From a virus, in UHGV virus genome UHGV-0307316: DNA of 64,000 nucleotides; one strand, 5' to 3'. This document shows positions 31,080 through 55,455 of this stretch, in pieces (position 1 is the stretch's first letter; each line of letters opens with the position of its first letter). The translations under genes and the position numbers were made by a program. The notes under the pieces were generated by a model that saw only the letters and a program-made list of their open reading frames with translations, did no database searches and was not told the DNA's origin.

Positions 31080-31595
31080 TCAACTTAGTTTTGCAAACTC
31101 TCCGTGGAGTTTTACAGCAGCTTCACAGTAAGCTTTATGGGCTTCTTCTTCCGTTGTGTATGTTCCTATATGTATAGTCTTACCATTATGGTTAATCTGG
31201 GCTACCCACTTACCAGACTTGCTTCTACTTGTGCCTTTTAAGTTTTTTGATGTTCTAGGTTGTCTCCTATTAGACATGTTCTGTTCTTTTGTGGCCTCTC
31301 TTAAATTGTTCCAAGCGTTATTCAAGCCATCTCCATCTTTGTGGTCAATGTGTTTATCAGGCCACTTGCCTGTCATCCAGAACCAAGCAATTCGGTGATT
31401 ACCTGTCCTGTATCCTAAAATCTGTGTGTGCATATACACACCAGACCTTGTGCGCTTAATTGCTCCGGCTTGGCTTCCAATAACCACCCTACTACTATGT
31501 GGAGGTCTACCAATCCATGTTAAGACCCCTGTTTCGGGGTCATAATCTAACCAAGACTTTAACTGTTCATGTGTGAATCCACAATCTCTCATCAA
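31080..31595 (-). CDS. HNH homing endonuclease with AP2-type DNA-binding domain
   Basis: HNH core IDHKDGDGLNNAWNNLREATKEQN; C-terminal AP2-like segment SKSGKWVAQINHNGKTIHIGTYTTEEEAHKAY; start abuts DNA polymerase stop. Confidence 0.7.
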   Translation of the reverse strand: MMRDCGFTHEQLKSWLDYDPETGVLTWIGRPPHSSRVVIGSQAGAIKRTRSGVYMHTQILGYRTGNHRIAWFWMTGKWPDKHIDHKDGDGLNNAWNNLREATKEQNMSNRRQPRTSKNLKGTSRSKSGKWVAQINHNGKTIHIGTYTTEEEAHKAYCEAAVKLHGEFAKLS

Positions 31596-34321
31596 TGTAC
31601 CTCATACCAGCTCTTACCAACCTTACCTGTGCCAGTTACAAGCGTCTCACTCTTCAAACCTAAATTCTTAGATGCCTGACCATACATCCAGTCAGTTATG
31701 GCTTTAACTTCTTGAGTCATACTTTCTGGGCATTCCCAACTGTTTTCATCGTGGTATGCCAGCAAAAGCCTAGCACCGATTGCTGGTTTTCGTCCATTTA
31801 ATTTTGTCAATCCTTCTTCACATGCTCTTCTACAAGCAAGATTAATTGCCTCATTTTGAATCTGAGCCTCTGAACCCATGAGCAAATAATTCAATAACTT
31901 ATGTGGAGATTTACACCACAACCAAGCTCCAGCAACCTTTACAAAACCACCTTTAGAGATTGCAGCAGTCTTACCAAATACCTCTTCAAGTGCCTTTTTA
32001 GTTGCTTTGTAGTCAGCTTCCAAGTCATCTAGCAGCTTTTTAATTTTAGGCAAACGAATAAAGTAAGTCTGTTTAGTCAGCGCACCTTCCTGAGTAGTTG
32101 CAGCTTTAATCGTCTTAGCAAACTTCTCATCACCTGCACCGAACAGCAGTGCATAGATACCATTCTTAGCTTTCTTACGACCCTTGCTAATCTCATGAAG
32201 AAGATTCTCATCCTGAGTAGCTCGACAAGTCAAGATGTCCTGCTCATCGTTCAAGTTAAAGTAAATACTGTTCAGTGTATGTGCATCAGTCCCTGAATAG
32301 ACAACGTACAGGTCATTCTCAGAGTCATAGCGAAGGTACTTATCAATCTCTGGGTTGAGGTACTCATCAAAGTGTTTACAGTAATAGCGTCCATCTTCTT
32401 GACGAATGAACTCAATTTCTTCTTTACCTTGCGTTACCGCTTTGGTGAAGTCTTTATCACCCATAAAGTTACAAAGAAGAACTAGCTGGGCTGAGTTCAT
32501 GTCTACAGAGACAACGTTAGTACCTTCCTCACAAATCCACACTGCCCTCATTGGTTCCCCATAGACAGCAGCACCAGACGGTACGTTTACAATACCATAC
32601 TGTGTCATACGTCCAGTTGAAGTACCAAACACCATTGCACCAGCACTAAGGCGACCATCAGGACGAATCTGGTTCAACCAACCTTTTTCATCATCCTTTG
32701 AGTTCTCAATAGTTCTGCGTCGGTGCATCAAAGTGTAGTATTTAGCAATCTTCTGTCCAAGCTCACCTTCAATCGTATCGTAAGATGATTCAGTAAGTTT
32801 TGGTGAAGTACGGATTAAGCAAGGCTCAAGCAAATCTGTGTACTTCTTCACAGACCAGTTATGCTCAATGTACTGGACGCCTTCGTGTTCAACATAACTC
32901 AAACCACACCGCTCAACCATTTCCTGCCACTTAGGATGCTTTGTAATCATCTTTTTATTGTCTTTGAAACGACAAACTTTGACAGGGCGACCATCAGAGT
33001 CTTTCTTGTAGTTCCAGTCATCTGGAATCCAACCAACTGATTTCAAGTAGTCTTTAACAACTGCTACCTGAGTCATACGAGAAACTTCAAACTCAATTGG
33101 TGTATATGGTGCATCAATCAAACCTGTGTAGCGACTTGACTCAAGTTCAAAGTGGTTAACAACGTGGCTGTTATAGTACTTCACAGTTTTGACTGTTTTT
33201 ACTGGCTTCCAGTCTTTGCATTTCTTACCAATCTTTGCGTTCAACTCATTGCAAATTGCACGAGCATCCTTCATTGCTACAAAGCCTTCCTTGTACTCTT
33301 CACCAGTTACAGAGTTGGTTGGTGTATAGCAATTCCTTTTTTCAATGTTAAAAATCTTTGTAGTTGGCTTACCAAATGGTTTGATTTCGTATGTCTGCAT
33401 CTCGCCATTACGTACCTGCTGACGATACTTTGTCTTAGGGTACTTGGTAATTCTTTTCAGTCCATCTGCATGACCAAATGTTTCAACATACTCATTCCAA
33501 GCTTTTGCAAACTCTTCTCCAGTGACTTTACCTTTGGTCTTAATAGTTGGAGGTAGATGTGGTTCAACCTCTGAAGCAAGCTCATTAGTCAACTTGTCAA
33601 GTTCCTTTACATGGAACTCCATAAGCTCTTTATCAGCTTTCCAACCATTGATAGCTTGTTGACTCATCCAGAAAGATGTTTCTTTAGCTCGCATGTAGGT
33701 TTCATAAGTGTCTATGCCACACTTCTTAAGCTTGAGATACTCATTATCAAGTGCCCGTTTAGTTTTGGCGTTAATACGGATATCTTCTACAACACGAGTG
33801 AAGATTTCTGCATTCCACACACCCCAATGTTCAATCTCTGGTTTACGAACACCAACACGAGCACCCCATGCAGCCAAGCCATGAGCACCTTTATAACCCT
33901 TTGGAGTTGGTCTATCCATCCACTGAACACGAGACTGGATAAGAGAATCCTGAAAGAAATTACTCCACGGCTTACACTTTGGATTATCAAAGTTCCATAA
34001 ATCCGGTGCAATGTGATTGAAAACCCACCAGTCATAACCTAGACCATTATGAATGCAAAGACGTTTTGCCTTTAACGCAAACTCAATACCTTCACGTAAG
34101 CCACCCTTAATGTACTTGGTATACTTGTGACCGAGGATAGGCTCATCTGTAAAGACCCATACAGGTGGCTCTTCATCGTCAGATTTATAGTCTGCGAAAG
34201 CCATTACGTGCACTTTAGTGAACTCAAGGAGTAAACCATCAGTTTCTGTATCACCAACTAAATGTAAGTTTTTAAAATCTACGTTTTCCATTTTTACTCC
34301 CTCTAAAATCATTAACCTCAT
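31592..34321 (-). CDS. DNA polymerase, family A (T7 gp5-like) with 3'-5' exonuclease domain
   Basis: Exo I VGDTETDGL; Pol motif A VSVDMNSAQLVLL; motif B KKAKNGIYALLFGAG; motif C AYHDE. Confidence 0.9.
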   Translation of the reverse strand: MRLMILEGVKMENVDFKNLHLVGDTETDGLLLEFTKVHVMAFADYKSDDEEPPVWVFTDEPILGHKYTKYIKGGLREGIEFALKAKRLCIHNGLGYDWWVFNHIAPDLWNFDNPKCKPWSNFFQDSLIQSRVQWMDRPTPKGYKGAHGLAAWGARVGVRKPEIEHWGVWNAEIFTRVVEDIRINAKTKRALDNEYLKLKKCGIDTYETYMRAKETSFWMSQQAINGWKADKELMEFHVKELDKLTNELASEVEPHLPPTIKTKGKVTGEEFAKAWNEYVETFGHADGLKRITKYPKTKYRQQVRNGEMQTYEIKPFGKPTTKIFNIEKRNCYTPTNSVTGEEYKEGFVAMKDARAICNELNAKIGKKCKDWKPVKTVKTVKYYNSHVVNHFELESSRYTGLIDAPYTPIEFEVSRMTQVAVVKDYLKSVGWIPDDWNYKKDSDGRPVKVCRFKDNKKMITKHPKWQEMVERCGLSYVEHEGVQYIEHNWSVKKYTDLLEPCLIRTSPKLTESSYDTIEGELGQKIAKYYTLMHRRRTIENSKDDEKGWLNQIRPDGRLSAGAMVFGTSTGRMTQYGIVNVPSGAAVYGEPMRAVWICEEGTNVVSVDMNSAQLVLLCNFMGDKDFTKAVTQGKEEIEFIRQEDGRYYCKHFDEYLNPEIDKYLRYDSENDLYVVYSGTDAHTLNSIYFNLNDEQDILTCRATQDENLLHEISKGRKKAKNGIYALLFGAGDEKFAKTIKAATTQEGALTKQTYFIRLPKIKKLLDDLEADYKATKKALEEVFGKTAAISKGGFVKVAGAWLWCKSPHKLLNYLLMGSEAQIQNEAINLACRRACEEGLTKLNGRKPAIGARLLLAYHDENSWECPESMTQEVKAITDWMYGQASKNLGLKSETLVTGTGKVGKSWYEVH

Positions 34322-40170: not shown

Positions 40171-41211
40171 ATGGAGAAGTACACATTAACAAAACTTCCC
40201 GATTCAGTTACACATGTCTTTATTGACTCTGACAGTATTGCCTATAAAGGTGCTTGTGTAGTTGAGAAAGCAAAATATAAATACGTCAATAAACTCACAG
40301 CAGAAGAATCTGAACCATTTGACAATGCGAAAGATGCTGCAAGATGGTTAGCAGACCAGAGAATCCTTGTGGAAGAACTTGGCCTGACATTTGATGAAGA
40401 TGAATGGGAAAGACAGACTTGGAAAGAAGCTAAGAGTGAAAAAGAAGCTATCATGGCTACTCAACAGGTGCTTCAGGAATGGCTTAAGGTTGTTGGTAAA
40501 GAAAGAACTTGGGTAGGTTATTTAACAGAGAAAGGTGTGCATAAACATAAAGACATTAAAGGTCTTGAGCACCAATATCAAGGTAACCGTAAAGATGCTG
40601 TCACACCAACACACTTAGTTGCTTGTCGTGAATACCTTTTATCCAGACCAGAGTTCAAGCTCTTAAAGGGGGGCTTCGAAGCCGATTCAATCGTAATTGC
40701 TAAAGCTGAAAAGATGGGTAAGAAGGCTGCTCTTATGAGTATTGATAAAGACCTTCGACAAGCTGAAGGAACTTATTGTATTGATATGACTTATGAAAAA
40801 TCACCACTAATCTTTATTGCTGATAATAATGTTGGTGATATCTGGGATTGTCCTATCAAATCAAAACCAAAAGCTGCAAAAACAGTTGGTGTAGGTTTTA
40901 AGTTCTTGTGCTATCAGGCTGTTGCTGGAGATAATGCAGACAACTACTTCGGACTTAAAGGTGCTGGTAAAGTAGCTGTGATGAATGCTTTAGATGGTAA
41001 AGAGACCTACAAAGAGTGTCTTGATGCTATCTATGAACTCTATGCTAAAAAAGACTCTTATACCTATGTGTCATGGGATGGACAGACTGTTACAAAGACA
41101 CCGTTAGAGTTAATGGAACAGCATTTCTGGATAGCATATCAAGAGAGAAATCCAAAAGACAATTTCTCTTTCAAGAAATATAATTGGGAGCCGTGTATGA
41201 ATGAAGATTAA
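40171..41211 (+). CDS. 5'-3' exonuclease (T7 gp6-like)
   Basis: Colinear T7 gp6-like blocks: VFIDSDSIAYKGA, YQGNRK, MSIDKDL, GDNADNYFGLKGAG. Confidence 0.75.
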   Translation: MEKYTLTKLPDSVTHVFIDSDSIAYKGACVVEKAKYKYVNKLTAEESEPFDNAKDAARWLADQRILVEELGLTFDEDEWERQTWKEAKSEKEAIMATQQVLQEWLKVVGKERTWVGYLTEKGVHKHKDIKGLEHQYQGNRKDAVTPTHLVACREYLLSRPEFKLLKGGFEADSIVIAKAEKMGKKAALMSIDKDLRQAEGTYCIDMTYEKSPLIFIADNNVGDIWDCPIKSKPKAAKTVGVGFKFLCYQAVAGDNADNYFGLKGAGKVAVMNALDGKETYKECLDAIYELYAKKDSYTYVSWDGQTVTKTPLELMEQHFWIAYQERNPKDNFSFKKYNWEPCMNED

Positions 41212-41698
41212 AGGATTTGGCAATTGCCCTACCTACGGTCATTGGGTATCTTTATGTGGGGAAGTTGACCCCACTAAACATTTTGGCTTTGTCTATTTAG
41301 TACACTGTAAGAAGACTGGACAATATTATATAGGAAAGAAACAGCTTAACAGTGTGACCAAAAGAAAAGTTGCTGGGAAGACTCGGAAGAAGGTAGTCAC
41401 TAAGGAAAGTGATTGGATGACTTACGAAACCTCTTCTGAGTATATTAAAAAAGATATTGAGAGCTTTGGAAAAGAATTTTTTGACTTTTACATTATTCAG
41501 ACCTACTACACAAAAGGTGGCCTAGTCTATGGTGAAGCAAACCTTCAACATAAATTCGATGTAATGACAAAAAGGATTGACTCGAAGCTCAGACTCTTCT
41601 ACAATGCCAATATTGCAGCAATTAAGTTTATTACTAAAGAAACTTATGAAGATGCTGAAAAAAGAATCCATAAGGTAATGAAAGCAAATTGTGCTTGA
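41201..41698 (+). CDS. GIY-YIG-like nuclease domain protein (putative homing endonuclease)
   Basis: FGFVYLVHCKKTGQYYIGKK resembles the GIY..YIG signature; small basic protein. Confidence 0.35.
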   Translation: MKIKGFGNCPTYGHWVSLCGEVDPTKHFGFVYLVHCKKTGQYYIGKKQLNSVTKRKVAGKTRKKVVTKESDWMTYETSSEYIKKDIESFGKEFFDFYIIQTYYTKGGLVYGEANLQHKFDVMTKRIDSKLRLFYNANIAAIKFITKETYEDAEKRIHKVMKANCA

Positions 41699-47487: not shown

Positions 47488-49632
47488 ATGAACAAAGTAC
47501 AGATTATTAAAAAGAATGGCTCACTTGAAGAACCTGATATCAAAAAAGTTTTAGCAGCAGTCACAAAGTCAGCTAACAGAGTTGGTTATAAAGAGCTTCC
47601 ACCAGATGTTACTCAAGCTCTTGAGTCAGCATTTATGAGGATTCTGGTAAAGTCCACTAAGCAGAATAATTTGCTAATTTCGGTAAATGATATTCACAGT
47701 ATTGTTGAGGGTGCTTTGGCAGAAGTCAATCACGAGATTTATGAGTCTTACTCAACATATAGAAATTACCGTAAAGAGGTTGCTCAAAATTGGGATGAAC
47801 TCTACCAGAAGACCAAAGATACACTCTTCTTAGGCGACCGAGAAAACGCTAATTTTGACAGCAGTTTAATTTCTACAAAAGGCTCAATTATTCGTGGTTA
47901 CCTGACTAAAGAAATCTTTAAACAGTACCATTTAACACCAGAGGAACTTGAAGCCATTGAAAAAGGATTTATCTATATCCATGATTTAAGAGACCTAATT
48001 TTTGGTGGTATCAACTGTTGCCTGTTTGACATTGGTAAAGTCCTGAAAGGTGGCTTTGAAATGTCTGGCATCGAATATTGTGAACCGAAGTCTGTGCTGT
48101 CAGCCTTACAGGTTATTGGTGATGTAGTTCTTTCAGCAACTGCACAGCAATTTGGTGGCTTTACTTTAGCAGAGATTGATAAGGTACTTGTACCGTATGC
48201 TAAGAAGTCTCTACGCTATCATGCTGAGAAAGCAGCATCTTATGGTATTCCTAAAGAACATTACCATAATTATGTCATGGAGCAGCTACAGATTGAATTA
48301 ACTCAAGGTTTTCAGTCACTTGAAATGAAACTGAACACTGTACCTTGCAGCCGTGGTGATTTCGCATTCACAACTTTAACATTCGGGTTACTTGACTCAG
48401 ATATGTCTAATGAAGACAACCGACTACAATACATGATTGCAAGTACTCTCCTAGATGTTCGTATGAATGGACAAGGTAAGAGCAAGAAGCCTGTTGTATT
48501 TCCTAAACTGGTTTATATTTATGACCAGAAGAGACATGATGAAAATATCTGTCAAGGTCACCTGTACAGTAAAGCTATTGAGTGTTGCTCTAAAGCAATG
48601 TATCCAGATTTCTTAAGTGTATCTGGTCATGGTGCTGTAGCAGAGGCTTTTGAGCGTTCTGGCAAGGTTATTTCGCCGATGGGTTGCCGAGCGTTCTTAT
48701 CTCCGTATCTTAACGAGAATGAGGAAGAGTTCTACGTTGGTCGTGCTAACATTGGTGCTGTATCTTTGAACTTACCAATGATTTACCAGTATTCTAAAGA
48801 GAATGGTTTAGATTTCTGGAAAGAGCTTGATAAGTACCTAGAGATGATTCGCAGCTTCCACAAGAAACGTTACGAAATGATTGCTAATATGCCAGCAAGT
48901 TCTAACCCTCTTGCATTCACACAAGGTGGTCTGTACAAAGGGACTAAGAAACCTACTGACAGGGTTGGTTGGGATATTGTGAAATCCTTCACAGCTTCTT
49001 TTGGGGTTACTGCTCTTGATGAGCTGTCTGTTCTTGCTGAAGGTAAACGACTTCATGAAGTTGGAAGCTATAGTTTTGCATACGATGTTCTGGCATACAT
49101 TAACATGAAAACTGAAGAGTTTAAGAACGAAGATGGCTTCCTGTATGCGGTATATGGCACTCCAGCAGAATCACTTTGTGGAACTCAGTTAAAACAGTTC
49201 AGGGATATGTTTGGTGTTATTAAAGGTGTCTCTGACAAGGAATACTTTACAAACAGTTTCCATATGAATGTTGCAGCAGACATCTCACCATTTGATAAGC
49301 AGGACTTAGAAGAACCATTCTTCCATATCTGTAGAGGTGGCAGAATCCAGTATGTAAGGGTAGCTAACCCAGAAAACTTACCAGCACTTAAAAGTTGTAT
49401 TACCAGAGGGATGTTGAAAGGTTTTTATCAGGGACTTAACTTTGACTTAGCAATCTGTGAGCATTGTGGTAACAGACCAAAATCAGATGTTGAAGAGTGT
49501 GAAGTTTGTCACTCACATGATATCTCTGTGATTAACAGAGTGTGTGGGTATCTTGGATGGACTAAGATTAAAGGTGAATCCCGAATGAACGATGCAAAAA
49601 TCGCTGAGATTCGTGATAGAGTCTCTATGTAA
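47488..49632 (+). CDS. nrdD: Anaerobic ribonucleoside-triphosphate reductase (class III)
   Basis: N-terminal ATP-cone, C-terminal Zn ribbon (CEHCGN...CEVCHS) and glycyl-radical motif RVCGY. Confidence 0.9.
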   Translation: MNKVQIIKKNGSLEEPDIKKVLAAVTKSANRVGYKELPPDVTQALESAFMRILVKSTKQNNLLISVNDIHSIVEGALAEVNHEIYESYSTYRNYRKEVAQNWDELYQKTKDTLFLGDRENANFDSSLISTKGSIIRGYLTKEIFKQYHLTPEELEAIEKGFIYIHDLRDLIFGGINCCLFDIGKVLKGGFEMSGIEYCEPKSVLSALQVIGDVVLSATAQQFGGFTLAEIDKVLVPYAKKSLRYHAEKAASYGIPKEHYHNYVMEQLQIELTQGFQSLEMKLNTVPCSRGDFAFTTLTFGLLDSDMSNEDNRLQYMIASTLLDVRMNGQGKSKKPVVFPKLVYIYDQKRHDENICQGHLYSKAIECCSKAMYPDFLSVSGHGAVAEAFERSGKVISPMGCRAFLSPYLNENEEEFYVGRANIGAVSLNLPMIYQYSKENGLDFWKELDKYLEMIRSFHKKRYEMIANMPASSNPLAFTQGGLYKGTKKPTDRVGWDIVKSFTASFGVTALDELSVLAEGKRLHEVGSYSFAYDVLAYINMKTEEFKNEDGFLYAVYGTPAESLCGTQLKQFRDMFGVIKGVSDKEYFTNSFHMNVAADISPFDKQDLEEPFFHICRGGRIQYVRVANPENLPALKSCITRGMLKGFYQGLNFDLAICEHCGNRPKSDVEECEVCHSHDISVINRVCGYLGWTKIKGESRMNDAKIAEIRDRVSM

Positions 49633-50684: not shown

Positions 50685-51170
50685 ATGAATTACATGGAGA
50701 TTCGACCATTTGATACAGCTAATGGTGAAGGGGTTCGTGTAAGCCTCTTCGTAGCTGGTTGTAAGCATCACTGCGAAGGCTGCTTTAACAGGGAGTCTTG
50801 GAAGTTTAATGCTGGTAAAGAGTTTACTTATGCAAACCTTTATGGCATTCTAAGACTTTTGGAAGATGACTCTTTAAGTGGGCTGTCTATCCTCGGTGGA
50901 GAACCATTGGATGACCGTAACATTGGAGAAGTCACTAAGATTTGTCAGAAGGTTAAATCAATCTATCCAGAGAAATCTATCTGGCTCTGGACAGGTTTTC
51001 AGTTACATGAAAAAATTCACCTTGATGTGATGAAATATGTTGACGTGGTGATTGATGGTAAGTATGATTCATCTAAACCAACAGTTAAACCATATCGTGG
51101 TTCTAATAACCAAAACCTCTGGAGAAAAGAGTATGGGTGGCAAGGTGATTGTCAGTGGAGAGCAGAGTGA
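50685..51170 (+). CDS. nrdG: Anaerobic RNR activating protein (radical SAM)
   Basis: CKHHCEGC radical-SAM cysteine motif near N-terminus; small size; near nrdD. Confidence 0.8.
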   Translation: MNYMEIRPFDTANGEGVRVSLFVAGCKHHCEGCFNRESWKFNAGKEFTYANLYGILRLLEDDSLSGLSILGGEPLDDRNIGEVTKICQKVKSIYPEKSIWLWTGFQLHEKIHLDVMKYVDVVIDGKYDSSKPTVKPYRGSNNQNLWRKEYGWQGDCQWRAE

Positions 51171-51537: not shown

Positions 51538-51858
51538 ATGAGCAAAGTTTATAACACTCGCAAATTACAGATTTTCGTACTGTGCCAGTTTATGGCTAAA
51601 GAATACAACTTCTACTATTGTGGTACAGGTTTTATTAGTGATGATGATGGCTCATACCTCCCATTTAAAGAAGCTGTAAAGCTCTTTAATGAAGAGAAAA
51701 GCTCTAAGAAAGATATTGAAAAGGTTAAGCTAACCTACAGCAAGAAAGATAAGAAGATTATCTGCCTAGATAACTTTGTGAAAGTTACTGGAGAAGCAAA
51801 AGAGTTTATGGATGAGAGTGAGATTTCATTCACAAGCATCTTGAAAGTAGCTCAGTAA
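51538..51858 (+). CDS. Hypothetical protein
   Basis: 106 aa ORF. Confidence 0.3.
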   Translation: MSKVYNTRKLQIFVLCQFMAKEYNFYYCGTGFISDDDGSYLPFKEAVKLFNEEKSSKKDIEKVKLTYSKKDKKIICLDNFVKVTGEAKEFMDESEISFTSILKVAQ

Positions 51859-51871
51859 ACAGATACTATAA

Positions 51872-51896
51872 GGGGACTGTAAAGGTTCCCTTTTTA
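51872..51896 (+). terminator. Rho-independent terminator
   Basis: GGGGAC-loop-GTTCCC hairpin followed by TTTTT. Confidence 0.45.
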
Positions 51897-51909: not shown

Positions 51910-52425
51910 ATGTATCTGTCAAACCTAAAACGTTCTGCTGCAATGTCAGTGCTAAGACTCAGCTTTGAGGAACGTCAAGAGTTCATTGACTCCCACCAAT
52001 ACGACCCCTCAAACTCCAATCACATGATTCTCTGGAATCGTGAAAGTACTCGTGAAAGAGCACTATTCCGTTATTACCCACACTACACTATAGATAACCT
52101 GTATGAATTGTTTGTTGTGAAGAACACCATTACAGTGCTCAATAAACTTTGCAGATACACAGGTAGCCAATCCTTCACATTAGGTCACCACAAGCCTGTT
52201 ACAAAGGGTGGTGAGCATCACTGTGCAAACTGGTTTATCCAGACTAAGCTTGATAACCAGAAGCAAGGCGACAGTCTTCTAAGCATCCCTAAGATGACCT
52301 ACGAAGAGCAAGAGAAATATATCAAAAATAATATGCCAGATGTGCTTGACAACAACTATACAGATTTGGCAATATCTCTCCTGTTGAAGTTCGAGACAGT
52401 TTATAGGGCAACTTACAATGGCTAA
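51910..52425 (+). CDS. HNH endonuclease (putative)
   Basis: LGHHKPVTKGGEHHCANWFIQTKLDNQKQG resembles the HNH core (His pair, Asn, Cys). Confidence 0.45.
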   Translation: MYLSNLKRSAAMSVLRLSFEERQEFIDSHQYDPSNSNHMILWNRESTRERALFRYYPHYTIDNLYELFVVKNTITVLNKLCRYTGSQSFTLGHHKPVTKGGEHHCANWFIQTKLDNQKQGDSLLSIPKMTYEEQEKYIKNNMPDVLDNNYTDLAISLLLKFETVYRATYNG

Positions 52426-52696
52426 AGAGAAGTGGGAAATTTTACCATTAGTCAGTGAAGGTGGTAATGGTTGTGAAATGTACATGATACGTGGTCATGT
52501 TCCAGAACCAATTGCACTTGAGATGGTAAACAACTTTACAGATGGTTCTTACAAAGACTTAGGAGAGCCAACTATAAAGCATCAATGGGTAAAACCTGTA
52601 CCAGACAGCACAGGTAACTGTAGTGTACTTTACCACGTTGTAGACCCTGTAAAATGCAAATCTGCAATGGCAGTAACAAACGTAACCTTTGATTGA
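52418..52696 (+). CDS. Hypothetical protein
   Basis: 92 aa ORF. Confidence 0.3.
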   Translation: MAKEKWEILPLVSEGGNGCEMYMIRGHVPEPIALEMVNNFTDGSYKDLGEPTIKHQWVKPVPDSTGNCSVLYHVVDPVKCKSAMAVTNVTFD

Positions 52697-53589
52697 GAGA
52701 CAAAACTATGAAAACATCTATCCGTGTTACAGTTCATTCACCAACTAAAGGGACTCACGAAGAAGAGTTTAACATCGTCCAATTTCCTTCTGGTGAGATT
52801 GGTGGACATTTTTCACCAGAGTTTGTTGATTTTACTGCTTATGCTGCATCATCCATCAACAACGTGATTATGATTATAAAGGGTTATGACAAAGACACAT
52901 TATTTGCTGTGGCACTTGCTAAAGAGGTAATTGATGATTTAGTACCTCATAAGTTTGCTATGAAGACTGCTATCTTTTACTATTTGCCAAATGCACGTTA
53001 CGACCGTCACATGTTTAAAGGTGATGCAGCAGCTTTGAAAGTGTTTGCACAACAGGTTAATGCAATGGGTTTTGATGCAGTCTGTGCAGTTGACCCTCAT
53101 AGTTACGTTCCAGATAACCTTTTCAATTGCTTCCAGAGTATTCCTCAAAAGGAGATTGCAGTCCATTACGCAAATGACCCTCTGATTGATTACTTAGTAG
53201 CCCCAGATGCAGGTGCTTCTAAGAAGATTGCAGAGACTGCTAAAGAGGTGGATAAACCATATATCACAATGTCTAAGGTGCGAAATCTTAAGACTGGAGA
53301 AATCACTGGTATGCGAATCCTTGACGATGTTGATTTGACCGATAAAACCGTCATGATTCTTGATGATATCTGTGATGGTGGTCGAACCTTCGTAGAGGCA
53401 GCTAAACACCTACGTGAAGCAGGTGCAAAACGTGTAGAGCTTTATGTAACACATGGTATCTTCTCTAAAGATGTTGAAAACCTTCTTGACAATGGTATCG
53501 ACCATATTTACACTACAAACTCTTTAGGCGAAGCTAAAGACCGTGGCTTAACACATTACAGTCAAGTTACTGTAGCAAACCTTGATTGA
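52693..53589 (+). CDS. Ribose-phosphate pyrophosphokinase family protein (Prs-like; candidate ADP-ribose pyrophosphokinase Adps)
   Basis: PRPP-synthetase-type C-terminal half: VAPDAGA, phosphoribosyl-binding loop VMILDDICDGGRT, YVTHGIFS. Confidence 0.75.
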   Translation: MRDKTMKTSIRVTVHSPTKGTHEEEFNIVQFPSGEIGGHFSPEFVDFTAYAASSINNVIMIIKGYDKDTLFAVALAKEVIDDLVPHKFAMKTAIFYYLPNARYDRHMFKGDAAALKVFAQQVNAMGFDAVCAVDPHSYVPDNLFNCFQSIPQKEIAVHYANDPLIDYLVAPDAGASKKIAETAKEVDKPYITMSKVRNLKTGEITGMRILDDVDLTDKTVMILDDICDGGRTFVEAAKHLREAGAKRVELYVTHGIFSKDVENLLDNGIDHIYTTNSLGEAKDRGLTHYSQVTVANLD

Positions 53590-53636: not shown

Positions 53637-55418
53637 ATGACTAAATCACTTTATGCAGTACCAGCAGGTTTAAACGCGGATGCTTACAAGTCTGGCCATG
53701 TTTACCAGTACCCTAGTGCAACAGAATACTTGATGTTCAACCTGACACCACGTAGTGACAAATGGTTTAACAGCCCTTTAGCAATTGACGGTGTAGTGGC
53801 TTTTGGTATTCAACGTTTTGTTAAAGATTACTTGATAGACCACTGGAACGCCACTTTCTTTGAACGTGATAAAAAAGAAGCAATTGACGAAATCTTAGAA
53901 GTCATGAATGGTGTTCTGGGTAAAGATGCTATCGGTCGAGAGCATTGGGAAGCACTTCACGACTTAGGTTATCTACCAGTTGAAGTATACGCGGTAGAAG
54001 AAGGTACAGTTGTCCCTATGCGTGTCCCAATGATTGTCTTCCAGAACACTGTTTCAGGTTTCCATTGGGTAGCAGGTTATCTGGAAGATGCTTTCTCTGC
54101 TGAGATTTGGAAGGCTTGCACTATTGCAACTATTGCATTGCATTACAAACGCATCTGTAAGAAGTGGGCTGACCTTACTTGTGACAACGACTTACATCTG
54201 CCCTATCAGTGCCATGACTTTGCTATGCGTGGTATGTCCGGCTTTACTGATGACGCATTTAACGCTGTAGGTCACTTAACCAGCTTTAAAGGAACCGATA
54301 GCTTCCCTGCTGTATACACGGCTAAACGCATCTATGGACAGTCTTACCCAATCTCTGATATTGGTAGTTCTGTACCAGCCACTGAACACTCTGTAATGTG
54401 TGCAAACATTGCTTGGGAAGGTGGTAATGAATTGATTGAAGAAGAAAGACGCTTTAAAGGTGAGTTACAAACCTTCCGTCGTTTCTTAACAGAAACTTAC
54501 CCAACTGGTATTGCAAGTATTGTTTCAGATACTTATAACTTCTGGAGAACTGTGTCAGAAATCTTACCAGCACTCCGTAAAGAAATTATGGAACGTGATG
54601 GTAAACTGGTAATTCGCCCTGACTCTGGAGACCCTGTACATATTGTCACAGGTTATAAAGCAATCCACTTAGAGTGTGCTAAAAAGGCTTATTACGAGCA
54701 CCTAAGCAAGCTTGAAGCCAGCGACACAATGTTGAATGCTGTTCTGAACATGAAGCTTGAAAACATCAACTATGGTATTGCTGGATGGCTACTGTCAGAA
54801 GGCTACGAAATGGTTGTTGACAGAGAAGACTTTGAAGTAGCCGATACAGTGTTGCTGAAAGATGCTTACATCAACGGCTCTGCAAACGTTGTAACACGTC
54901 CTGTAGCGGAGATTGATGGAGCTATTAAGACACTGTACAACATCTTTGGGGGAACTATTAACTCTAAAGGGTTTAAGGTACTGGATGAGCACATTGGCCT
55001 TATCTATGGCGACTCTATCACGCTGGAACGTGCAAACGAAATCCTGAAGCGTCTGTATGAAATGGGTTTTGCAAGCTCTAACGTAGTGTTTGGTGTAGGC
55101 TCTTACACTTACCAGTACATGACTCGTGACACCTTTGCATTTGCTGTTAAAGCAACTCTTGCAAGCATTGGTGGTAAAGAGATTATGCTTGCAAAAGACC
55201 CTAAAACAGATAGTGGTGTTAAGAAGTCTGCTTTTGGTGGTGTAGTACCTATGTGGAATGGTGATAAGTTGAAAGCTGTAGATGGCTATGGATTCCAGAG
55301 CTTTGCAGATGTACTTGAACATCCAGCTTGTGCTCTACGTTTAGTCTTTAGTGACTCTGAGCAGTATGGTTACACATCTCTTGGTGATATTCGAAATAAT
55401 ATTGACAAGCAGCTTTAA
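53637..55418 (+). CDS. Nicotinamide phosphoribosyltransferase family protein (NadV-like; candidate nicotinamide ADPR transferase Namat)
   Basis: 593 aa ORF with NAMPT-like N-terminus (NADAYKSGHVYQYP); immediately downstream of Prs-like gene. Confidence 0.7.
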   Translation: MTKSLYAVPAGLNADAYKSGHVYQYPSATEYLMFNLTPRSDKWFNSPLAIDGVVAFGIQRFVKDYLIDHWNATFFERDKKEAIDEILEVMNGVLGKDAIGREHWEALHDLGYLPVEVYAVEEGTVVPMRVPMIVFQNTVSGFHWVAGYLEDAFSAEIWKACTIATIALHYKRICKKWADLTCDNDLHLPYQCHDFAMRGMSGFTDDAFNAVGHLTSFKGTDSFPAVYTAKRIYGQSYPISDIGSSVPATEHSVMCANIAWEGGNELIEEERRFKGELQTFRRFLTETYPTGIASIVSDTYNFWRTVSEILPALRKEIMERDGKLVIRPDSGDPVHIVTGYKAIHLECAKKAYYEHLSKLEASDTMLNAVLNMKLENINYGIAGWLLSEGYEMVVDREDFEVADTVLLKDAYINGSANVVTRPVAEIDGAIKTLYNIFGGTINSKGFKVLDEHIGLIYGDSITLERANEILKRLYEMGFASSNVVFGVGSYTYQYMTRDTFAFAVKATLASIGGKEIMLAKDPKTDSGVKKSAFGGVVPMWNGDKLKAVDGYGFQSFADVLEHPACALRLVFSDSEQYGYTSLGDIRNNIDKQL

Positions 55419-55429: not shown

Positions 55430-55431
55430 AA

Positions 55432-55455
55432 AAGGCTCCCGTAGGAGCCTTTTTA
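55432..55455 (+). terminator. Rho-independent terminator after NadV-like gene
   Basis: GGCTCC-CGTA-GGAGCC followed by TTTTT. Confidence 0.6.

Follow-up and report, generated by a model that had tools for sequence, protein, structure and literature searches.

The DNA analysed here (the window) is a stretch of 64,000 nucleotides (nt) from the virus genome UHGV-0307316, a Felix O1-like coliphage genome (Felixounavirus, Ounavirinae) that is 97-99.7% identical to published coliphages. In nucleotide searches, segment 39000-44000 showed 97-99.7% identity to phages such as VpaE1_ev78, LF110P2, finno and Bas63 (Escherichia phage JohannRWettstein, MZ501086), and segment 50600-53700 showed 92-96% identity to the same Felixounavirus group. 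Two open reading frames (ORFs) of the window are considered here. ORF1, which follows an exonuclease gene, and ORF2, which lies upstream of a Prs-like gene, had been taken for selfish genes and counted, together with an HNH-AP2 gene, as at least three putative homing endonucleases. Our analysis indicates that ORF1 and ORF2 are, most probably, nuclease-fold genes that are fixed and vertically inherited in the Ounavirinae, not mobile homing endonucleases, and that the HNH-AP2 gene is the only credible homing endonuclease in this part of the window. The features on which the argument turns are the following (aa, amino acids).

40171..41211, + strand: T7 gp6-like 5'-3' exonuclease gene, 346 aa (phrog_107, E=2.4e-63)
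41151..41196, no strand: empty site for the insertion of a homing endonuclease, where the exonuclease gene meets ORF1 (comparison with LF110P2)
41201..41698, + strand: ORF1, a 165-aa stand-alone SegE-type GIY-YIG protein (Pfam PF19835, phrog_447, identity to Bas63 bas63_0057)
51910..52425, + strand: ORF2, a 171-aa divergent HNH (beta-beta-alpha-Me) protein (phrog_3500, orthologue of Bas63 gp77)
31080..31595, - strand: free-standing HNH-AP2 homing endonuclease gene (Pfam HNH_3 and AP2)

The positions of the two genes had been read correctly. ORF1 begins with an ATG right behind the exonuclease gene, with which it shares its first 11 nt, and ORF2 sits between nrdG (50685..51170) and the Prs-like gene. 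ORF1 carries FGFVYLVHCKKTGQYYIGKK. Its GIY-YIG assignment, which the original prediction had made at motif level, was upheld by a profile search. Far from there being no significant match to a nuclease family, ORF1 matches Pfam PF19835 (SegE_GIY-YIG) far beyond chance (E=9.4e-28; 97.4 bits with a cut-off of 25; residues 21-138 on model positions 10-123 of 123). Among the PHROGs, it matches phrog_447 (labelled 'NAD synthetase'; E=4e-48) and, more weakly, homing-endonuclease families, and it is 100% identical to Bas63 bas63_0057. In an alignment of ORF1 relatives with 47-87% identity, residues G29, F30, Y32, Y43, G45, E112 and N135 are invariant, and they remain so once the protein of cyanophage S-SM1 and the N-terminal part of the Seg-like protein of phage leE (359 aa) are included. 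The GIY motif is thus represented by G29-F30-x-Y32 and the YIG motif by Y43-x-G45. Among close relatives, K64 does not vary and R62 hardly does, and both would lie within a hairpin insertion predicted by the structural model. No DNA-binding domain is recognisable in ORF1 with Pfam, which gives the catalytic domain alone. PDB sequence searches with the single protein and with the family profile returned no match, and NCBIfam gave none for any of five proteins, ORF1 and ORF2 among them. Judged from its sequence, ORF1 consists of a GIY-YIG domain alone, and this domain retains the main catalytic residues.

The HNH-like call for ORF2 stood on remote homology and failed on Pfam, in which the protein has no HNH match at E<=1, nor a match to any other domain. 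ORF2 carries LGHHKPVTKGGEHHCANWFIQTKLDNQKQG. It matches phrog_3500 (unknown function) with E=5e-91 and phrog_2214 ('HNH endonuclease') with E=3.8e-4, and two members of its family (P0047 and P0042) reach Pfam HNH at E ~0.03. No GIY-YIG family was matched at E<=1 by any of the family members searched (14 of 14 negative). Within the family, G100, G101 and N107 do not vary, and conservation is 90% or higher at H93, P96 and N116. In an AlphaFold 2 (AF2) model of moderate confidence (predicted local distance difference test, pLDDT, 68.8), a strand at 89-93, a strand at 108-112 and a helix at 113-121 are predicted to make up a beta-beta-alpha unit, in which H93 would close the first strand, N107 would precede the second and N116 would lie inside the helix. 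We regard the family as small, because a full HMMER scan of 1.8e9 representative proteins with its profile returned just 18 clusters. The same profile matched (E=6.5e-5 among 1.8e9 proteins) a repeated-domain protein from outside the query profile, P0050, which is above the Pfam thresholds for HNH_5 (8e-13) and HNH (8.7e-12). With the Gme HNH nuclease 4h9d, the profile aligned in register and weakly (E=0.056); the PDB sequence searches with ORF2 otherwise yielded matches to protein A repeats, which were dismissed as chance. Among viral structures (BFVD), matches past its own family were mostly HNH proteins, with the Aeh1 'HNH endonuclease' at a probability of 0.99 and E=0.03, and a Foldseek search of the model against the PDB gave no significant match. 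Pfam detected no DNA-binding domain in ORF2. From these comparisons of sequence and predicted structure, the HNH-like fold of ORF2 is well supported, and its nuclease activity is putative.

Do these two genes behave as mobile elements? In megablast searches, full-length copies were present in 217 of 217 matching records for ORF1 and in 204 of 208 for ORF2, against 44 of 146 for the HNH-AP2 gene, which served as the control. Likewise, at least 80% of the locus was covered in 239 of 261 records for the ORF1 segment and 229 of 259 for the ORF2 segment, against 88 of 262 for the HNH-AP2 locus. A query in which ORF1 had been deleted and its flanks joined found no one-piece match, and no ORF1-less genome was seen with it; every one of the 34 two-piece matches listed (123 records cover at least 80%) spans ~1200 bp, meaning that ORF1 is present. 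The corresponding query for ORF2 gave spans of ~1300 bp, with few exceptions. In one of these, phage L27, ORF2 and orf92 (the ORF that follows it) have been lost together by a microhomology deletion between short repeats (TCTGC..AATG), which left a 20-codon fusion ORF that starts with the initial ~13 codons of ORF2 and ends with the final ones of orf92; NBEco004 has a shortened span as in L27. In BPS17W1, orf92 alone is deleted and ORF2 is extended by six residues. The deletions in L27 and BPS17W1 are scars, not empty homing sites.

Synteny, which the original prediction had suggested as a way of finding insertion sites, showed a constant position for both genes. ORF1 follows the exonuclease gene in Mooglevirus (Michonne), a Hafnia phage and Kolesnikvirus, and ORF2 precedes prs-nadV in Mooglevirus Sf13, phiEa21-4 (Kolesnikvirus) and Pectobacterium phage Arno162. 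Across five other Ounavirinae lineages, the identity of ORF1 and ORF2 tracks that of the flanking genes: in Michonne, the Hafnia phage and the Erwinia phage, the amino acid identities are 87, 64 and 62% for ORF1, 92, 60 and 54% for the exonuclease and 77, 42 and 38% for MazG, and in phiEa21-4 and Arno162 they are 44 and 41% for ORF2 and 46 and 51% for NadV. The ratio of nonsynonymous to synonymous substitution rates (dN/dS) was 0.037 for ORF1 and 0.029 for the exonuclease, and 0.11 for ORF2 and 0.13 for prs, values that are approximate because dS is saturated (>1). On these sequence estimates, ORF1 and ORF2 are both under strong purifying selection. Their architecture also differs from that of the controls, in which Pfam recognised HNH_3 with AP2 (the window gene), HNH_3 with NUMOD1 (bas63_0068) and the 359-aa Seg-like arrangement of leE; no DNA-binding module of this kind was detected in ORF1 or ORF2. 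Because distribution, junction queries, synteny, flank-tracking divergence and architecture all contradict homing, we consider that neither gene is mobile, and of the at least three homing endonucleases that had been proposed, one credible case is left.

That case, the HNH-AP2 gene, had been identified correctly (Pfam HNH_3, 6.9e-14; AP2, 1.6e-9). It lies directly downstream of the DNA polymerase gene (31592-34321, - strand), which it abuts, and we take it to be a homing endonuclease because it combines a nuclease with an AP2 domain and occurs sporadically. Several relatives annotate the DNA polymerase as two coding sequences (CDSs) at this locus, a sign that their polymerase genes may contain further insertions. 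There is also an empty site beside ORF1. In the Felixounavirus LF110P2, the exonuclease/ORF1 junction holds, in place of 44 bp, 535 bp with the gene for a 174-aa protein; the C-terminus of the exonuclease is recoded, and ORF1 is still 100% identical. Inspection by eye showed HNH and AP2-like motifs in this 174-aa protein, which is 33% identical to the HNH-AP2 protein of the window (E=4e-17). Its allele is full-length in 26 of 103 records, and a different HNH allele occupies the same junction in SWJM-02, 35FD, radambza, VSe11 and fjerdesal. In 93 of 216 records, the ORF1 flanks are not joined into one place, and a junction insert is responsible in the cases inspected. In the window, this site (41151-41196), where a second HNH-AP2-type element can insert, is unoccupied. 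A further mobile gene is found in Bas63, where nrdD is a two-part CDS split by an intron with the HNH_3+NUMOD1 gene bas63_0068; the nrdD of the window (47488-49632) is uninterrupted.

What, then, might ORF1 do? Its overlap with the exonuclease gene, or an abutment of the two, also occurs in finno, Michonne, Bas63 and the Hafnia phage, and because the gene ends overlap, we propose that the two genes are probably co-translated or translationally coupled. Few genes of the replication block are as well conserved as ORF1. Its most likely role would be that of a general or structure-specific, non-homing endonuclease acting with the exonuclease, and by analogy the pair could serve to break down host DNA to nucleotides or to process intermediates of replication or recombination. 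T4 endonuclease II (DenA) is a stand-alone GIY-YIG enzyme, and T7 pairs its endonuclease gp3 with the gp6 exonuclease in the breakdown of host DNA. Stand-alone short homologues of ORF1 are widespread in T4-like cyanophages near nrd genes ('T4-like GC 213'). Literature searches on the ORF1 family found nothing.

The setting of ORF2 is different, and it includes the following features.

51870..51892, + strand: terminator-like hairpin and T-run just 5' of ORF2 (hairpin scan)
52418..52696, + strand: orf92, a 92-aa ORF of unknown function that overlaps the end of ORF2 (phrog_4726)
52693..53589, + strand: Prs-like phosphoribosyl-pyrophosphokinase gene, orthologue of Bas63 g79 (Pfam and PHROG matches)
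53637..55418, + strand: NadV-like nicotinamide phosphoribosyltransferase gene, orthologue of Bas63 g80 (98% identity to Bas63)
55430..55453, + strand: terminator-like hairpin at the end of the ORF2-orf92-prs-nadV unit (10-bp stem with 5 GC pairs, T-run)
51538-51858: 106-aa ORF (Pfam DUF7390, E=1.1e-16)

A hairpin with a T-run is found at the position upstream of ORF2 also in Bas63, Sf13, CECAV_041, phiEa21-4 and Arno162, with stem sequences that differ. This conserved hairpin, together with another after nadV, suggests that ORF2, orf92, prs and nadV form one unit bracketed by terminator-like structures. A scan for sigma-70 promoters around ORF1 and ORF2 gave counts at chance level, and no promoter of their own is claimed. 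An obligatory link between ORF2 and NAD salvage was considered and rejected as a general rule, since a homologue in the Stephanstirmvirinae lies beside genes for a UvrD-type helicase and ribonucleotide reductase and not beside prs/nadV.

ORF2 is 97% identical to Bas63 bas63_0077 (gp77) over all 171 residues. In the PhageMaP preprint, deletion of gp77 lowered the plating of Bas63 ~10-fold on cells with retron Ec67, and complementation restored it; its authors propose that gp77 cleaves retron multicopy single-stranded DNA (msDNA) (PMC11482910). According to the same source, gp77 is dispensable on laboratory hosts, for growth on which the whole of 46-66 kb of the Bas63 genome is nonessential, and g79 and g80 are counter-defence genes that regenerate NAD+ against Sir2-HerA (PMC11482910). 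From the orthology to gp77 and the Ec67 plating phenotype, which is reported for Bas63, ORF2 would most likely be a counter-defence nuclease. The gene numbers of the preprint are the GenBank locus tags, as its anchors indicate (g65, glutaredoxin; g79/g80, prs/nadV; g124, Ig-like; g130, upstream of the tRNAs). An offset in the numbering, raised by 'gene 74 = reductase activator', was rejected because these other anchors match the locus tags. The GIY-YIG gene of Bas63 is bas63_0057 and the HNH-like gene is bas63_0077, and the label given to gp77 in the preprint (a GIY-YIG domain protein; PMC11482910) may be mistaken.

The Prs-like protein of the window is 79% identical to that of Bas63 and 95-96% identical to those of L27 and BPS17W1, whereas the surrounding ORF2, orf92 and NadV proteins are 97-98% identical to those of Bas63; this difference points to an exchange of the Prs-like gene alone as an allele. 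Between orf92 and prs, Salmonella phage vB_CECAV_041 carries an additional ~1.9 kb with four small ORFs, and in Arno162 a gene annotated as a homing endonuclease separates prs from nadV. The orf92/prs/nadV stretch is a variable spot, and ORF2 keeps its place. On the other side of ORF2, homologues of the 106-aa ORF are annotated as 'putative HNH homing endonuclease' (Sf13) and 'HNH endonuclease' (BPS17W1); DUF7390 was the sole domain detected in this ORF, and its dN/dS relative to Sf13 was comparatively high (0.41).

Several observations weigh against our assignments of fold and role. For ORF1, the AF2 model is of moderate confidence (pLDDT 70.6), with residues 109-114 and 120-147, including E112 and N135, below pLDDT 50, and Foldseek placed the I-TevI catalytic domain at the top of its PDB matches at a non-significant E of ~0.4-0.5 (target-normalised template modelling score, TM-score, 0.52-0.56). 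A weak hhalign profile alignment with the same domain (E=0.017, probability 2.7%; the I-TevI sequence was checked against annotated T4-like records) was in the correct register, with Y32 opposite the GIY tyrosine and Y43 opposite that of YIG, and it put I-TevI R27 opposite V52; the canonical catalytic arginine could not be placed. The partnership of ORF1 with the exonuclease is deduced from gene overlap and synteny, and homologues occur in other contexts in cyanophages and in Stenotrophomonas phage IME-SM1. For ORF2, to the Pfam result and the moderate model must be added that Gly92 precedes His93 in place of the usual acidic residue, and that the family has no conserved (zinc-binding) cysteines, although neither the acidic residue nor the Cys pairs are universal in the HNH superfamily. 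The Ec67 phenotype of gp77 is modest (10-fold) and comes from a preprint that is not peer reviewed, and the description of gp77 there as a GIY-YIG domain protein conflicts with our HNH assignment (PMC11482910).

Could one or both genes nevertheless be homing endonucleases that have swept to fixation and are still selfish, for example via marker exclusion? ORF1 falls in a Pfam family named after T4 SegE that has longer Seg-like relatives (leE, 359 aa), GenBank often labels its homologues 'GIY-YIG homing endonuclease', Felixounaviruses harbour several real homing endonucleases, and ORF2 is missing from a few genomes. Yet ORF1 shows no presence/absence polymorphism, and in L27 the microhomology deletion that removed ORF2 left a scar and took orf92 as well. 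Fixed homing endonucleases are expected to decay; these two genes hold the same locus across genera at 41-64% identity, with dN/dS far below 1, and the conservation of ORF1 equals that of the helicase and the exonuclease. Nor was a DNA-binding module detected in either protein, and we regard such a sweep as very improbable. It is also distinctly unlikely, in our opinion, that either protein, or both, is a domesticated nuclease fold without catalytic activity that serves to regulate by binding DNA or as a structural partner. Domesticated endonucleases serving as regulators exist in phage-related elements (PMC8096241); ORF2 lacks the acidic residue before its His and the zinc-binding Cys pairs and is missed by the Pfam HNH models, and the catalytic Arg of ORF1 has not been identified with confidence. 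Set against this, the catalysis residues (Y32, Y43, E112 and N135 in ORF1; H93, N107 and N116 in ORF2) are invariant or nearly invariant over deep divergence, which is the pattern expected of active enzymes.

Another reading concerns ORF1, which might be a counter-defence nuclease directed at a nucleic acid of host defence or at competing DNA, and not a partner of the exonuclease in DNA metabolism. Bas63 gp77 offers a precedent, and the stand-alone homologues in unrelated contexts (cyanophages, IME-SM1) argue against an obligatory link to the exonuclease. We think this rather unlikely, as ORF1 retains 62-64% identity where MazG has 38-42% and counter-defence genes are usually variable; moreover, ORF1 is absent from the counter-defence hits mentioned in the text of the preprint (PMC11482910). 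Returning to our preferred reading of two fixed, non-mobile nuclease genes, we can tentatively extend it. It is possible, though we would not presume it, that both are domesticated modules that once homed, with ORF1 now the obligatory coupled partner of the exonuclease and ORF2 opening a four-gene counter-defence operon. If so, the first would be a two-enzyme unit for DNA breakdown or repair whose GIY-YIG half is common to marine T4-like cyanophages, and the operon would join an HNH anti-retron nuclease and orf92 to two enzymes of NAD+ reconstitution.

Both genes are already known, in that identical or near-identical copies are in public records and they are members of existing families. What our analysis offers is therefore a set of annotation corrections and an empty insertion site; the genes are otherwise ordinary. 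Labels such as 'GIY-YIG homing endonuclease', 'NAD synthetase', 'HNH endonuclease' and 'hypothetical' should give way to conserved single-domain nucleases that are not mobile. The name 'NAD synthetase', carried by phrog_447 and by many RefSeq phage records, including those of cyanophages, had no support in any domain search, and an NAD-related function for ORF1 was rejected because GIY-YIG is the only domain detected; other records name genes of the ORF1 family HNH endonuclease or GIY-YIG homing endonuclease. That gp77 is HNH-like rather than GIY-YIG bears on the mechanistic follow-up of its phenotype (PMC11482910). The true mobile endonucleases, downstream of the polymerase gene, at the exonuclease/ORF1 junction and in the nrdD intron, can now be told from the fixed nucleases, which should aid the engineering of therapy phages. 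The ORF1 family, shared by the Ounavirinae and cyanomyophages, is a reasonable, non-urgent target for experiments.

How do these proteins compare with known systems? ORF1 shares with T4 SegE and other Seg-type GIY-YIG endonucleases the PF19835 domain family and the conserved GIY and YIG tyrosines, Glu and Asn. It differs from them in having 165 aa, compared with 359 in the Seg-like relative of Cronobacter phage leE, in lacking a C-terminal DNA-binding domain, in being fixed at one locus and in evolving like a core gene. Closer in form are the short SegE_GIY-YIG proteins of cyanophages, such as SSM1_208 of S-SM1 (153 aa, a single domain, Pfam E=2.3e-52), whose genes lie near nrdA/nrdB, are widespread in cyanomyophage records and are mislabelled 'NAD synthetase'; these have ~30% identity to ORF1, other immediate neighbours and no adjacent exonuclease. 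With T4 EndoII and T7 gp3+gp6, the likeness would be that of a small phage endonuclease encoded inside a nucleotide-metabolism or replication block, and it is an analogy of role and not of membership; sequence searches of solved structures, EndoII included, returned nothing for ORF1. ORF2 shares the broad HNH superfamily, and the same genomes, with the Felixounavirus HNH-AP2 endonucleases, which in contrast to it have strong Pfam HNH_3 and AP2 matches, a DNA-binding domain and a sporadic distribution (44/146 and 26/103). Its orthologue with a reported phenotype is Bas63 gp77, which occupies the same locus upstream of orf92-prs-nadV.

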